From Escherichia coli O157:H7 (GTDB taxonomy: Bacteria > Pseudomonadota > Gammaproteobacteria > Enterobacterales > Enterobacteriaceae), in NCBI RefSeq assembly GCF_013167455.1, contig NZ_CP038328.1: a DNA stretch of 64,000 nt. One strand, 5' to 3'. The notes under the pieces were generated by a model. The model did not search any database, had not been told where the DNA came from, and saw only the letters and a program-made list of their open reading frames with translations. Shown piece after piece: positions 21,015-61,525 of the stretch (the stretch's first letter is position 1; the number at the start of each line of letters is the position of its first letter). The translations under genes were made by a program, and so were the position numbers.

Positions 21015-22052
21015 TCAAGACGCCTTCGCCAACTCCTTCACCAGCGGTAGCATTATCCGCATAACGTCACGGCAGCGACGTTCTATTCTTCCAGGAAGTG
21101 CTTTATCAATATGTTGCTGATTATCCAGTCTTACGTCATGCCAGCTATTTCCCGCAGGGAATGCGGCTGTTTTTGCGCGTTGCTGATAACCATCTTTATT
21201 CCCAAGATTCCAGTTTGTCGCTTCCACCGAAAGTACAGCAATGCCCGCTTTGTCGAATATTTCTGCGTCATTACAACATCCAGTGCCTTTCGGATAATTT
21301 TTATTCAAACCCGGATTGGTCGTTGCGGCAATTCCATGACTACGCGCAATTGCCAGCGCCCTGTCGCGCGTTAATTTCCTTACTGCTTCAGGGGTTTTTA
21401 CACCGCTGTTGAAATACAATTTATCGCCAACAATTAAGTTATCGAGATTAATCACCAGCAGCGTATTTTTCTTTTCGGTGTCACTCATCCGCTTGAGTAA
21501 ATTCTCAGCGCCTAATTTCCCTTCCTCTTCTCCACTGGTCGCCACAAATCGAATACCATACTCGGTAGGCGTATTTTTCAGGCGTTCTGCCAGTTCCAGC
21601 ATGACACCTAAACCTGCGGCGTTATCATCCATTCCTTGTAACGTCAGCCCGCCGAGATTGGCATCTGCATCTGCGTCGCTCTGCGGGGCATAGGTATCCA
21701 GATGCGCCATAATAATGATCTGCTGCGGCGCTTTGCCTTCATGAGCGGCAATCACCGTACTTCCCGTCACGTTGTGCCAGTTTTTGCGGTTATCGCGGGC
21801 GGTATAAATATATCGGCTATTAAACGTACGAATATCACTGCGGTAACCCATTTGCTGAAACTGTTGCCGAATATAATCGGCAGATAACATTTCTGCGGGT
21901 GTTCCGGTCATTCGTCCCGGAAAGAAAGTGGCAATATGTCGCGCCTGTGTATTGGCAAAATCGCCAGGTTTAGGTGACGAGGCGTGTACGGGGAGAATAA
22001 AGCATACGCCGAGCGCCAGGGCAGCGGTACGGTGGCGCAATGCGGAAAACAT
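21015..22052 (-). CDS. iap: alkaline phosphatase isozyme conversion aminopeptidase
   Basis: 345-aa ORF with signal peptide; position between CRISPR and cysD. Confidence 0.85.
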   Translation of the reverse strand: MFSALRHRTAALALGVCFILPVHASSPKPGDFANTQARHIATFFPGRMTGTPAEMLSADYIRQQFQQMGYRSDIRTFNSRYIYTARDNRKNWHNVTGSTVIAAHEGKAPQQIIIMAHLDTYAPQSDADADANLGGLTLQGMDDNAAGLGVMLELAERLKNTPTEYGIRFVATSGEEEGKLGAENLLKRMSDTEKKNTLLVINLDNLIVGDKLYFNSGVKTPEAVRKLTRDRALAIARSHGIAATTNPGLNKNYPKGTGCCNDAEIFDKAGIAVLSVEATNWNLGNKDGYQQRAKTAAFPAGNSWHDVRLDNQQHIDKALPGRIERRCRDVMRIMLPLVKELAKAS

Positions 22053-35817: not shown

Positions 35818-38379
35818 TTACACCAGACTCTTCAGGCGATAAATCCATTCCAGCGCCTGACGCGGGGTGAGTGAATCCGGATCGAGGTTTTCCAGTGCCT
35901 CGACTGCAGGCGAGGTTTCTTCCGGTACGGACAGCAAAGACATTTGCGTACCATCCACTTGCGTAGCGGCGGCGTTCGGCGAAATGCTTTCCAGCTCACG
36001 CAGTTTTTGCCGTGCGCGCTTAATAACCTCTTTTGGCACGCCGGCCAGAGCTGCAACCGCCAGGCCGTAGCTTTTGCTCGCCGCGCCATCCTGCACGCTA
36101 TGCATAAAGGCAATGGTGTCGCCGTGCTCCAGTGCATCGAGATGCACGTTGGCGACGCCTTCCATTTTCTCCGGTAACTGGGTCAGCTCGAAATAGTGGG
36201 TGGCAAACAGCGTCAACGCCTTAATCTTATTCGCCAGATTTTCCGCGCACGCCCACGCCAGCGACAGACCATCGTAAGTGGACGTTCCGCGCCCAATCTC
36301 ATCCATCAGCACCAGACTGTACTCGGTGGCGTTATGCAGAATATTAGCGGTTTCGGTCATCTCCACCATAAAGGTTGAACGCCCGGAAGCCAGATCATCC
36401 GCTGCCCCTACGCGGGTAAAGATACGGTCAATCGGGCCAATCTCGACTTTTTGCGCCGGTACGTAGCTGCCGATATAGGCCATCAGCGCAATCAGTGCGG
36501 TCTGGCGCATATAGGTACTTTTACCGCCCATGTTCGGACCGGTAATAATCAACATCCGGCGCTGCGGTGACAGATTCAGCGGGTTGGCGATAAATGGCTC
36601 GTTCAGCACCTGTTCAACCACCGGATGGCGGCCTTCGGTAATGCGAATGCCCGGTTTATCAATGAAGGTCGGGCAGGTGTAGTTCAGGGTATAGGCCCGT
36701 TCCGCCAGGTTCACCAGCACGTCGAGTTCCGCCAGCGCGCTCGCGCTCTGTTGCAACGCTTCCAGATGCGGCAACAGCAGGTCGAACAGCTCTTCATAAA
36801 GCTGTTTTTCCAGAGCCAGTGCTTTGCCTTTTGAAGTGAGGACTTTATCTTCGTACTCTTTTAGCTCTGGAATGATGTAGCGCTCGGCGTTTTTCAGCGT
36901 CTGGCGACGCATATAGTTGATAGGTGCCAGATGGCTTTGCCCACGGCTGATTTGAATGTAGTAGCCGTGCACCGCATTAAAGCCAACTTTTAGCGTGTCC
37001 AGGCCGGTACGTTCACGCTCGCGGACTTCCAGACGCTCCAGATAATCGGTCGCGCCGTCAGCCAGCGCGCGCCACTCATCCAGCTCTTCGTTATAGCCTG
37101 ATGCGATAACACCACCGTCGCGTACCAGCACCGGCGGTGTGTCGATGATTGCTCGCTCCAGCAGATCGCGCAGCTCGGCAAACTCGCCCATCTTCTCACG
37201 TAGCGCCTGTACTGGTGCACTATCAACAGTTTCTAACTGCGCACGCAGCTCCGGCAGTTGCTGGAAAGCGTGACGCATACGGGCCAGATCGCGTGGGCGA
37301 GCGGTACGCAACGCCAGACGCGCCAGAATACGTTCCAGGTCGCCGACCTGACGTAGTACCGGCTGCAACTCGGCGGTGAAATCCTGCAATGCGCCAATAG
37401 TTTGCTGGCGCTCAAGCAACACGCGGGTATCGCGCACTGGCATATGCAGCCAGCGTTTCAGCATACGGCTGCCCATCGGCGTGACGGTGCAGTCGAGCAC
37501 AGAAGCCAGCGTATTTTCCGCACCACCCGCCAGGTTCTGGGTGATTTCCAGATTACGACGCGTCGCGGCATCCATAATGATGCTGTCCTGCTCACGTTCC
37601 ATGGTGATGGAACGAATATGCGGCAGAGTCGTACGTTGGGTATCTTTCGCATACTGCAACAGACAACCGGCAGCACAAAGTCCGCGCGGCGCGTTCTCGA
37701 CGCCAAAACCGACCAGATCGCGGGTCCCAAATTGCAGATTCAACTGCTGGCGCGCGGTGTCGATTTCAAACTCCCACAGCGGGCGACGGCGCAGGCCGCG
37801 ACGGCCTTCAATTAACGACATTTCAGCAAAATCTTCTGCATACAGCAGTTCCGCAGGATTAGTGCGTTGCAGTTCTGCCGCCATCGTTTCCCGGTCAGCC
37901 GGTTCGCTCAGGCGAAAACGACCGGAACTGATATCCAGCGTCGCGTAGCCGAAACCTTTGCTGTCCTGCCAGATAGCCGCCAGCAGGTTGTCCTGACGCT
38001 CCTGCAACAGGGCTTCATCGCTGATGGTGCCTGGCGTAACGATACGCACAACTTTGCGCTCAACCGGACCTTTGCTGGTCGCCGGATCGCCAATTTGTTC
38101 GCAGATGGCAACGGACTCGCCCTGATTCACCAGTTTGGCGAGGTAGTTTTCCACCGCATGGTAGGGAATCCCCGCCATCGGGATCGGCTCTCCCGCCGAA
38201 GCACCGCGTTTGGTCAGTGAAATATCCAGCAGTTGCGACGCGCGTTTTGCGTCGTCATAAAACAGTTCATAAAAATCACCCATCCGGTAAAACAGCAGGA
38301 TCTCGGGATGCTGGGCTTTCAGCTTGAGATACTGCTGCATCATGGGCGTATGGGCGTCGAAATTTTCTATTGCACTCAT
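35818..38379 (-). CDS. mutS: DNA mismatch repair protein MutS
   Basis: 853-aa ORF; Walker [10 protein letters not shown]. Confidence 0.97.
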
Positions 38380-38619
38380 GGGGTTATGTCCGGTTCCCTG
38401 ATATTAAATGGGGTGTGATGGTTTTTATTTTCGTTGTAATCACATAAGGCGCACATGATACCGGAGTTAATCATTTCAGGGGAAGAAGCGAACGGCGAGT
38501 TCTTGATGCTGGTTCCGGGAAAGATGCTGTTTTGCAGCTTTTGCGTGATGCTTATGAAGCAAGTACGCAAAATTGTATCGGTTGGCTAACCCTTCTTCTT
38601 TAGAGTCATAGTGCCCTTT

Positions 38620-38648
38620 AAGATTAAGTTGTAATATAAATGCATCTT
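38620..38648. promoter_or_regulatory. candidate NsrR operator upstream of ygbA
   Basis: aagattaagttgtaatataaatgcatctt; right half AAATGCATCTT fits the NsrR half-site as recalled. Confidence 0.45.
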
Positions 38649-38665
38649 AATGAGGTGGAGGCAGT

Positions 38666-39019
38666 ATGTCCGGCAAGCGTATCTCTCGTGAAAAACTGAC
38701 GATTAAAAAAATGATCGATCTTTATCAAGCGAAATGCCCGCAGGCGTCAGCGGAGCCGGAGCATTACGAGGCGTTGTTTGTTTACGCGCAAAAGCGGCTG
38801 GATAAATGTGTGTTCGGCGAAGAGAAACCAGCCTGTAAGCAGTGTCCGGTGCACTGTTACCAGCCTGCAAAGCGTGAAGAGATGAAACAGATTATGCGTT
38901 GGGCCGGGCCGAGAATGCTGTGGCGTCATCCGATCTTAACCGTGCGTCATCTCATCGATGACAAGTGTCCGGTGCCAGAACTGCCGGAAAAATATCGTCC
39001 GAAAAAACCTCGTGAATAG
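38666..39019 (+). CDS. ygbA: YgbA (nitrosative-stress-associated small protein)
   Basis: 117-aa ORF with GAGGTGGAGG upstream; synteny. Confidence 0.8.
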   Translation: MSGKRISREKLTIKKMIDLYQAKCPQASAEPEHYEALFVYAQKRLDKCVFGEEKPACKQCPVHCYQPAKREEMKQIMRWAGPRMLWRHPILTVRHLIDDKCPVPELPEKYRPKKPRE

Positions 39020-39055
39020 TATGCCGGACAGGCAGATCTGTCCGGCAATTTGCAG

Positions 39056-41134
39056 TTAAATCAATGCCGATTTATCAATTCCCAGTCGCTTCATCCGTGA
39101 CAGCAGGGTCGTGCGTTTCAGCCCCAGACGTTGCGCAGCGCCTTTAGGCCCGGCAACCACGCCGTTAGTTTCTTTCAGCACGCGAACAATCAACTGATAT
39201 TCATCTTCGCCCTCCTGAGCGACAACCGTTGCGGCAGGCGGCGTTTCAGGCTCCGGTAAAGCAATATCTGGCAATGACAGCTGCAGCACGTTGCCGCGTG
39301 TTAGCAATACCGCGCGCTCAATGACGTTTTCCAGTTCGCGTACGTTACCCGGCCACTCCATATTGCTCAAGGTGCGCAACGTCTCGGCAGGAATGCTGTC
39401 GATATTGCGCCCCAGACGACGGGCAATTTTGAAGGTAAAGGCTTTCGCCAGCAGCGGAATATCTTCCGGACGCTCGCGTAGTGGCGGCAGGTGAATCGGG
39501 AATACGTTCAGGCGGTAATAGAGATCGCTACGGAACTCACGGTCGGCGACCATTTTTTTCAGATCGCGGTTAGTCGCGGCGATTAGACGCACGTCCGTCT
39601 GAATGATTTTGTTGCTGCCGAGGCGTTCAAACTCCTGTTCCTGCAATACACGCAGCAACTTCGGCTGTAACTCCAGTGGCATATCGCCCACTTCGTCGAG
39701 GAACAGGGAGCTTTTATCCGCCAGTTCAAAACGACCGATACGCTGGGCGCTGGCACCGGTAAAAGCCCCACGCTCATGACCAAACAGATCGCTCTCCAGC
39801 AATCCGGCAGGCATCGCCGCGCAGTTCATTTTGACCATGCGGCGATTATTACGCCCACTGAGATTATGGATAGCACGGGCAATCAGCTCTTTACCCGTGC
39901 CAGTTTCACCGAGGATCAGCACGGTACTGTCACTTTGCGCCACCATTTCAACTTGTTTAAGCACGCTGTACATGGCTTCGCTGCGGCCAATAATCTCGCC
40001 AAATTCACTATCAACATTGTTGAGCTGCTCGGTCAGGGCGAGGTTTTCATCAACCAGCCGTTCTTTCAGACGATGGATTTCCTGATAGGCGAGGGCGTTA
40101 TCGACAGCGATTGCCACACGTTCGGCAATCTGGCGCAGTAAATTCAGATTGGTAGTGGTAAACACTTTCTCTTCACATTGCGCCAGTTTCAGCACGCCCA
40201 GCATGGTGTCGCCAGACATCAGCGGTAACAGGCACAAGGTTTGAATCTGGTTGCCCCAGGTATCGAACAACATGCGTTCATAGGGGGCTAAATCATCCCG
40301 CTCGTGGAGATTAATCAGCAGCATCTCTTTACTTTTGAACACGCGTTCGGTGAGGGTTCCGGCTTCATCGACTTCGCTCTGTTCGTGGGCGGGATGCTGT
40401 TTATCAAGATAGTGAGTGGAGTAGATGTTGAGTTTGTTTTTACGGTGGCTGCGTAAGACGATACTGATATCGTCAATATCGAAATAGTAATGGATTTCTT
40501 TGGCGACTTCGCTGACCAGTTCGTCCATATCCAGGCGGGAAAGCACCGCGTTGGTGATGGCGACCAGGATGCGGAAGTTATCGCGTTCCCGGCATAACAA
40601 CTCATAGTCGACATTGTTAACGACGCGACTCTGGATTTGTTCGGTGACGACAGAAACGATCTGCGTAAATGTTTGCAGACGATTGAACTCTTTTTCGCTC
40701 CAGGGGCGATCGTCATAACGAATAAATTCACAGCCACCAAAAATATGCCCTTCCGCCGCCAGTGGCATCAGGCAATAGTGACCAAATTTTGGGTATAGCC
40801 CACCTGCGGCCAGCTGCGGCCAGGTTTCACAAAATTCTTCGTAACTGCAATGCAACGTATCAGGGCGCGACAAAATGCTGCGTACCGGACCGTGTGCCAG
40901 AACAGTTTCGTCTTCATATTTAATGGGGGTGTCTTTTTCACGCGATGCGTAATAAGACGCACGTTGAGTCTGCGCTTGCCACAACACAATAGCCGCGTTG
41001 TCGGCGAGCGCAGAACGCTTTACCAGTTGCGAAAGAGCCTCACACAGCGAGGCCAGATCGGGCTGCTGCAATAGTGTCCGAGTGATGTCGAACAACCCTT
41101 GCTGTCCGAGATCACTCATCGGTGTATATGACAT
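39056..41134 (-). CDS. fhlA: formate hydrogenlyase transcriptional activator (sigma54 EBP)
   Basis: ORF 39056..41170; start at MSYTPMSD giving 692 aa; GAF and AAA+ (GETGTGKE) domains. Confidence 0.9.
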   Translation of the reverse strand: MSYTPMSDLGQQGLFDITRTLLQQPDLASLCEALSQLVKRSALADNAAIVLWQAQTQRASYYASREKDTPIKYEDETVLAHGPVRSILSRPDTLHCSYEEFCETWPQLAAGGLYPKFGHYCLMPLAAEGHIFGGCEFIRYDDRPWSEKEFNRLQTFTQIVSVVTEQIQSRVVNNVDYELLCRERDNFRILVAITNAVLSRLDMDELVSEVAKEIHYYFDIDDISIVLRSHRKNKLNIYSTHYLDKQHPAHEQSEVDEAGTLTERVFKSKEMLLINLHERDDLAPYERMLFDTWGNQIQTLCLLPLMSGDTMLGVLKLAQCEEKVFTTTNLNLLRQIAERVAIAVDNALAYQEIHRLKERLVDENLALTEQLNNVDSEFGEIIGRSEAMYSVLKQVEMVAQSDSTVLILGETGTGKELIARAIHNLSGRNNRRMVKMNCAAMPAGLLESDLFGHERGAFTGASAQRIGRFELADKSSLFLDEVGDMPLELQPKLLRVLQEQEFERLGSNKIIQTDVRLIAATNRDLKKMVADREFRSDLYYRLNVFPIHLPPLRERPEDIPLLAKAFTFKIARRLGRNIDSIPAETLRTLSNMEWPGNVRELENVIERAVLLTRGNVLQLSLPDIALPEPETPPAATVVAQEGEDEYQLIVRVLKETNGVVAGPKGAAQRLGLKRTTLLSRMKRLGIDKSALI

Positions 41135-45498: not shown

Positions 45499-45622
45499 GC
45501 TGAGGCTTTGCCCGTTTTGCAGGCGTTACGCCTGTTTGGGGATGGGCGTGTCGATGAGTGTCGAAAATGACATTTCATCGGCATGTTTTCGTCAAAAATG
45601 ACAATCACCTGAGGAATGCCTG

Positions 45623-60391: not shown

Positions 60392-61525
60392 CTACACCGG
60401 CAACGTTTTCAACAATCCAAATGCCTCTTTCATCCGATCCTCACTGACCACAAAGGCGCGAAGTTGGTCTGCATCGTCAACACCGCGCGCCACCATTCCC
60501 TGGCGTTCGGTATTAATCTGCCAGCGTAAATCCTGACGCTGGGTTTCGCCTGCCAGATGCAGCGGTAATTCCGGCGTTTTGATTTTCACCAGCATCGCCG
60601 GTAGTTTCAGCGGCGTGTTATTGCCGAGAAGATTTTTTGCCAGCACCATCGCGCTAAGTTGAATCGGCTGCAGGAACGGCAATACCTGACCGTTAATTTC
60701 CGCGCAATCGCCCAGCGCGTAAATATCGGCATTACTGGTTTGCAGATAACTATCGACGCAAACGCCGCGATTAATCGTCAGCCCGGCGCGTCGTGCCAGG
60801 GCGGTTTCCGGGCGCAGTCCGGTGGCGGCAATTACCGCATCCACTTCGATGCTGCGCTGGTGGTCCAGCGTTGCCAGAATGCCAGAATCCGTTTTTTCCA
60901 GCCCCTGCAACTGAGATTTCAACAGCAGATGAACGCCCATCTCCGTCAACCGATGCTGCAAGCGACTGCTTACTTCCGGTGGCATTAACGACGCCAGAAT
61001 ACTGGCAGCGTTGTCGATTAGCGTAACCATTTTGCCTGCACGACAAAAATCCATCGCCAGTTCGCTACCAATCAAACCACCGCCAACAATCAACACGCGT
61101 CGGGCATCCCGCAGTTGCGTTTCACAGGCGCGATACTCTTGCTGACTATTTAACGTCAGCATTAACTCACGCCCAGGCACTGGCGGGACAAAGGCGCTGG
61201 CACCGGTTGCCAGCACCAGCTTGTCGTATTGCCACTGATTATTCTGGCTTTTCACCACACGGGCTTCGGCATCGATATCCGTCACCCAGGTTTGCGGAAA
61301 CAGGAGCAGATTAAACTGCTCGGCAAATTCACCCGCCGTCTGGCGGGTAAGGTCGTCGGCACGTTGCCCCTGACTGATAACATGGCTGAGGTCAGGTTTG
61401 TTGTACTCATCCATACTGTCGGCGGCAATCAGGGTTAATGGAATACTGGCGTCCTGTTTGCGAATATTTTTCACCAGTTGGCGGGCGGCGAAGCCCGAAC
61501 CAATGATCACAATGCCGTTGCTCAT
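60392..61525 (-). CDS. norW: NADH:flavorubredoxin reductase
   Basis: 377-aa ORF; FAD/NAD Rossmann motifs. Confidence 0.9.

Follow-up and report, generated by a model that had tools for sequence, protein, structure and literature searches.

The 23 bp at 38626-38648, just upstream of ygbA in Escherichia coli O157:H7, very probably form the operator by which the repressor NsrR acts on this gene, and most likely also enclose the -10 element and the transcription start of its promoter. All coordinates refer to the window, by which we mean the whole stretch of 64,000 nucleotides that was analysed. The initial annotation had proposed a candidate NsrR operator in front of ygbA at 38620-38648, and this proposal is upheld by the top matrix score of the window, by an equivalent site in 79 of 80 enterobacterial species and by a published site at the same locus. 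The sequence at 38620-38648, AAGATTAAGTTGTAATATAAATGCATCTT, is an exact match to the string quoted in that annotation and lies, as described there, directly upstream of the ygbA ribosome-binding site, with the ATG at 38666. Its left boundary, drawn at 38620 with AAGAT, has to be moved by 6 nt, the true edge being placed at 38626 by spacing and conservation. The ygbA operator has been known in the literature since 2005, and ygbA counts among the textbook genes of the core NsrR regulon; the result is thus of little import beyond a correct annotation. What is added here are the exact boundaries of the O157-type site (38626-38648), a quantitative footprint over 80 species in which conservation stops at the 23-bp edges, a predicted -10 hexamer within the operator, which would account for the departure of the left half from the NsrR consensus, and the finding that operator alleles differ between E. 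coli lineages yet score equally. The parts of the site and the gene that it precedes are as follows.

38626-38648, no strand assigned: NsrR operator of 23 bp, an 11-1-11 inverted repeat AAGTTGTAATA-T-AAATGCATCTT, identified from the weight matrix, conservation and the published alleles
38626-38636, plus strand: left half-site AAGTTGTAATA, promoter-distal and the weaker one, 7/11 to AAGATGCATTT, 7.4 bits
38638-38648, minus strand: right half-site AAATGCATCTT, promoter-proximal, perfect, its minus strand reading AAGATGCATTT (11/11, 16.0 bits)
38620-38625, no strand assigned: AAGATT, the extra 6 nt of the earlier span, outside the operator by conservation, spacing and score
38653-38662, plus strand: Shine-Dalgarno region GAGGTGGAGG of ygbA, read from the sequence, a moderately conserved G-run
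38666-39019, plus strand: ygbA coding sequence, 117 aa, from the open reading frame, Pfam PF11756 YgbA_NO (E 1.6e-39) and RefSeq annotation

In published work the NsrR site of E. coli is described as a pair of inverted 11-bp motifs separated by 1 bp. This arrangement, with two inverted AAGATGYATTT halves, is found at 38626-38648, where the single base between the two 11-bp halves is the T at 38637. The right half had been said to fit the NsrR half-site, and AAATGCATCTT in fact agrees at all 11 positions with the half-site found in the ytfE NsrR palindrome; its sole exact copy in the window is the one at 38638-38648, and copies of this 11-mer with one mismatch occur at the chance rate (2 found versus 1.77 expected). 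The left half agrees with the ytfE half at 7 of 11 positions, or at 8 if Y is allowed, and the site as a whole matches the degenerate 11-1-11 consensus AAGATGYATTTNAAATRCATCTT at 19 of 22 positions. Hence the description of the left half as degenerate holds insofar as it is the weaker half, while in the correct register its departure is only moderate. Directly downstream of 38648 follows AATGAGGTGGAGGCAGT, and then the ygbA start codon.

A register whose left end is the AAGAT at 38620 was considered and rejected: with 11-nt halves it leaves a spacer of 7 bp, at odds with the 1-bp spacing, it runs over mostly unconserved columns, and a 23-mer placed from 38620 on reaches only 10.5 bits with the NsrR matrix. 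Plain match counts favour neither register, AAGATTAAGTT, the left end in the earlier register, matching the ytfE half at 8 of 11 positions against 7 of 11 for the in-register half; 38626 was preferred over 38620 because of spacing and conservation. When the strict ytfE palindrome AAGATGCATTTNAAATGCATCTT was searched over the window with up to three mismatches, there were no matches, the ygbA site included, because the left half alone has four mismatches, and a matrix or a Y/R-degenerate consensus is therefore needed.

The 25 distinct NsrR sites other than ygbA that Mehta et al. 2015 list in their Table 4 (PMC5320621) were used to derive a symmetrised log-odds matrix. The scan with an NsrR weight matrix, which had been suggested as a check, turned out strongly positive: 38626-38648 scores 23.6 bits and ranks first among 63,978 window positions, with a matrix trained without ygbA. 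The exact tail probability of this score is approximately 5e-9 per position, or 7e-8 under the AT-richer intergenic composition, and the chance expectation is approximately 3e-4 per window and 0.03 per 5.5-Mb genome. In 200 block shuffles of the window that kept its composition, 23.6 bits was never reached (maximum 20.0, mean 13.2). Of the 25 published sites, 21 score lower when evaluated leave-one-out, and 23.6 bits lies within the accepted range for an NsrR operator and above a genome-wide threshold. With a half-site matrix, the left half falls within the range of published half-sites at 7.4 bits, and the right half, at 16.0 bits, is the top half-site of the window. Further strong half-site matches lie at 21412-21422 and, inside norW, at 60419-60429.

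Conservation marks out the same boundaries. One YgbA scan of species-representative genomes yielded 80 loci, each of about 3.3 kb, from Escherichia, Citrobacter, Salmonella, Klebsiella, Raoultella, Enterobacter, Kluyvera, Leclercia, Lelliottia, Pluralibacter, Phytobacter, Trabulsiella, Kosakonia, Hafnia and others. The orthologous site just upstream of ygbA is the top matrix match of the entire locus in 79 of the 80, and the site scores (median 20.9 bits) are at least 15 bits in 71 of 80; the compared species are related, so that these counts are not independent events and the contrast with near-random flanks is the informative part. With the sequences anchored on the site, positions 1-23 carry a mean information of 1.39 bits per column; the 60 nt before them average 0.21 and the 12 nt after them 0.51. 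Columns 1, 2, 6, 7, 8, 11, 12, 16, 18, 19, 22 and 23 are conserved at 95% or more. Positions 38620-38623 carry 0.03-0.2 bits per column, with 0.83 at 38624 (T, position -2) and 0.72 at 38625. The conservation footprint has the edges of the 23-bp site and not those of the 29-bp span. The motif match, its significance, its position and this sharply bounded conservation are all direct observations of the present analysis.

The spacing to the gene is likewise constrained, the best upstream site lying 12-21 nt from the ATG in 79 of 80 genomes (mode 18). In Hafnia paralvei the site TACATGTATTATAAATATATATT scores 20.6 bits and ends 41 nt before the ygbA ATG, a spacing that implies either an extended leader or another start codon. 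The only decayed site among the 80, AAGAGGTAACATTCAAGCCTCTT with 4.5 bits, belongs to a metagenome-assembled genome, Enterobacteriaceae bacterium UBA5654.

It is conceivable, if improbable, that NsrR uses only the perfect right half-site at 38638-38648 and makes no specific contact with the left part. Single 11-bp motifs have been reported to be sufficient at some NsrR targets, the disparity between 7.4 and 16.0 bits would suit such a mode, and AAGATTAAGTT, in the AAGAT register, fits the ytfE half at one position more than the in-register half does. Across species, however, the six left-half positions 1, 2, 6, 7, 8 and 11 are 98-100% conserved, and A1, A2 and G6, which reach this level in 81 sequences, are not part of the -10 hexamer and are the dyad counterparts of positions 23, 22 and 18. 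In most species, moreover, the left half is closer to the consensus than it is here, as in AAGGTGTATTA, whereas AAGAT is mostly unconserved and would need the 7-bp spacer. These data argue for the full 23-bp operator as the unit that NsrR recognises.

Another regulator could in principle bind the palindrome in place of NsrR, given that it is AT-rich and lies among anaerobic genes and that IscR is a paralogue of NsrR. Between 38600 and 38665, however, the fits to the respective consensus sequences are 9/19 for Fur, 6/10 for FNR, 16/25 and 6/9 for IscR types 1 and 2, and 5/7 for NarL/NarP, compared with 19/22 for NsrR, and most of the best alternative matches fall off the conserved block; binding by Fur, FNR, IscR or NarL/NarP instead of NsrR is accordingly very unlikely. 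Neither the cross-species profile nor the consensus fits revealed a second conserved regulator site upstream of ygbA.

Within the NsrR operator, the cross-species profile also suggests the core elements of the ygbA promoter, which would be placed as follows.

38632-38637, plus strand: probable -10 hexamer TAATAT, embedded at site positions 7-12, from cross-species conservation
38609-38614, plus strand: putative weak -35 hexamer TAGTGC, from the T-T-G profile 17 bp before the -10
38644, plus strand: putative transcription start inside the right half-site, from geometry (about 7 nt past the -10); the leader would measure about 22 nt

TAnnAT occupies site positions 7-12 in 79 of the 81 sequences (TATTAT 52, TAAAAT 8, TAATAT 7, TAGAAT 7), with A11 conserved at 98% and T12 at 100%, whereas the NsrR consensus has T11 and any base at 12. 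Exactly 17 bp before TAnnAT, at site positions -17 to -15, the profile shows T-T-G, with G in 90%, where E. coli here has TAG. Together these two features point to a -10 hexamer of the ygbA promoter that probably lies within the operator, in its left half-site, which would then depart from the NsrR consensus because the embedded hexamer serves RNA polymerase as well as NsrR. Such a fusion of operator and -10, if real, would explain the fixed A11 and T12, neither of which is demanded by the NsrR motif. In this strain the match to the promoter consensus is 2/6 for the -35 and 4/6 for the -10; a simple sigma-70 consensus scan of 38300-39100 found no promoter-like site, and the promoter assignment therefore draws on conservation only. 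A text search of the literature found no mapped ygbA transcription start.

The near invariance of TAnnAT at positions 7-12, in a block placed where a core promoter should be, raises the question of whether the conserved block is simply the ygbA core promoter (-10, discriminator and start) with a coincidental resemblance to an NsrR site. This is highly improbable, as just 6 of the 23 conserved columns belong to the -10 hexamer, a dyad-symmetric conservation is seen in columns 1-2, 6, 15-19 and 21-23, the NsrR matrix gives P of about 5e-9, and ygbA is derepressed in nsrR mutants. Still less probable is the reading in which the inverted repeat folds into a hairpin in the leader RNA of ygbA, for instance an attenuator or a translational element. 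A hairpin can be drawn at 38623-38651 (ATTAAG...CTTAAT), but it folds no better than shuffled sequences (-11.2 kcal/mol, z = -1.21, with 25 of 200 shuffles doing as well), has no Rfam match and has an unconserved left arm, and with a start near 38644 most of the repeat would be untranscribed.

The NsrR operator reading accords with what has been reported for ygbA. NsrR is a repressor of the Rrf2 family whose iron-sulfur cluster senses nitric oxide (NO), as known from the literature. In the mechanism that we propose, holo-NsrR on 38626-38648 would cover the -10 region and the start and so keep RNA polymerase off the ygbA promoter, and damage to the iron-sulfur cluster by NO would release NsrR from the DNA and allow ygbA to be transcribed; the promoter elements and the start site are inferred, and with them the occlusion, whereas NsrR-dependent derepression, in vivo binding in K-12 and the chemistry of NO at the cluster come from the literature. 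A candidate NsrR site of E. coli K-12, ygbA -37 GATGtAaTaTAAATaCATC, which corresponds to positions 3-21 of the K-12 allele, was listed in the supplementary table of Rodionov et al. 2005 together with a ygbA site in Erwinia carotovora (PMC1274295), and their Discussion cites a communication from S. Spiro that YjeB/NsrR represses hmp, ytfE and ygbA. The statement that ygbA is reported as NsrR-regulated is well founded: according to papers citing Bodenmiller and Spiro 2006, ygbA of E. coli is regulated by NsrR and loss of nsrR derepresses it; in Salmonella, the ygbA mRNA of an nsrR mutant is up 31.8-fold (PMC2884951). Mehta et al. 2015 likewise call ygbA a known NsrR target (PMC5320621). Furthermore, ChIP-chip in K-12 found NsrR bound at ygbA (Partridge 2009, as relayed by Mehta et al. 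2015, PMC5320621). In CFT073, ygbA is among the most induced genes under nitrate/NO stress (PMC5320621), and Table 4 of Mehta et al. 2015 gives the CFT073 site AAGGTGCATTTATATTACAACTT a PatSer ln P of -16.65 against a cut-off of -14.28 (PMC5320621); this sequence is the reverse complement of the window site with one base different. NsrR ChIP-seq in CFT073 gave no peak at ygbA, which Mehta et al. 2015 regard as a false negative (PMC5320621), and their supplement has no ygbA entry. The literature surveyed yielded no in vitro NsrR footprint of the ygbA site. The published K-12 and CFT073 sites are orthologous to that of the window, sharing its locus, position and architecture.

The ygbA site can be compared with other operators of the core NsrR regulon, to which ytfE and ygbA both belong together with hmp and hcp. 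The ytfE operator AAGATGCATTTAAAATGCATCTT, its sequence taken from Table 4 of Mehta et al. 2015, is an 11-1-11 inverted repeat whose right half is identical to that of ygbA, but it is an essentially perfect palindrome of 32 bits, whereas the ygbA left half has four mismatches; among the differences, A11 and the fixed T12 of ygbA fit the embedded -10 hexamer. The hmp and hcp operators, like that of ygbA, combine one strong and one weaker half-site in a promoter region near the start codon, their positions in the table of Rodionov et al. being -48 and -28, compared with -37 for ygbA. In addition, the hmp and hcp promoters carry sites for extra regulators (FNR, NarP and others, according to the figure legends of Rodionov et al.).

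Within E. coli the operator exists in several alleles. The K-12 allele, AAGATGTAATATAAATACATCTT, differs from the window at 2 of 23 positions, 4 (38629) and 17 (38642), both of which also vary between species, and its right half reads AAATACATCTT, compared with the perfect AAATGCATCTT of the O157-type; these two differences are among only four in a 301-bp intergenic alignment of O157 and K-12. The CFT073 site differs from the window at 1 of 23 bases, position 20, where the window has T instead of C. This third allele, with C at position 20, also occurs in E. albertii and others, and CFT073 is the strain in which no ChIP-seq peak was seen. The matrix scores are nearly equal, at 23.6 bits for the window, 23.0 for K-12 and 22.0 for CFT073. 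In a census of exact 42-mers, the K-12-type allele was found in at least 2111 and the O157-type allele in at least 372 of 5426 genomes; the CFT073 23-mer placed in O157 flanks gave no exact 42-mer in E. coli genomes, presumably since the flanks differ. One may speculate that operator and -10 are fused under a joint evolutionary constraint and that the E. coli alleles tune NsrR affinity and basal ygbA expression between pathotypes, an extension that we consider rather doubtful.

The open reading frame at 38666-39019 is annotated as ygbA in O157:H7 genomes that are 100% identical and encodes a full-length protein of the YgbA_NO family. Of 5,426 complete E. coli genomes, 5,419 contain the stretch around the site. 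YgbA is a small, cysteine-rich protein with a CKQCPVHC motif and additional Cys residues; the literature describes it as a protein of no known function, and attempts to obtain a Salmonella mutant were reported as unsuccessful (PMC2884951). The order of genes in the window is cas genes, cysDNC, rpoS, mutS, ygbA, fhlA, hypEDCBA, hycA-I, ascBFG, hydN, hypF, norW, norV and the start of norR, with mutS (35818-38379), fhlA and hypEDCBA on the minus strand and ygbA (38666-39019) and hycA-I on the plus strand. The richness in NO and anaerobic-response genes pointed out in the initial annotation is therefore real, with hyc, hyp, fhlA, norW, norV and the start of norR all inside the window. In the spacer between mutS and ygbA, PGAP annotates a 44-aa 'hypothetical protein' (WP_000611932.1) at 38455-38589 on the plus strand in O157 genomes, which is unannotated in K-12; this annotation is probably spurious, because the part of it that lies under the cross-species profile is unconserved.

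The second-ranking position of the window scan, at 17.0 bits, is 45565-45587, AAATGACATTTCATCGGCATGTT, between hycA (end 45498) and hycB (start 45623), a site that belonged to the training set. The same sequence is the hycB NsrR site of CFT073 that was positive in ChIP-seq (Mehta et al. 2015, Table 4, PMC5320621), so that the window contains two published NsrR sites.
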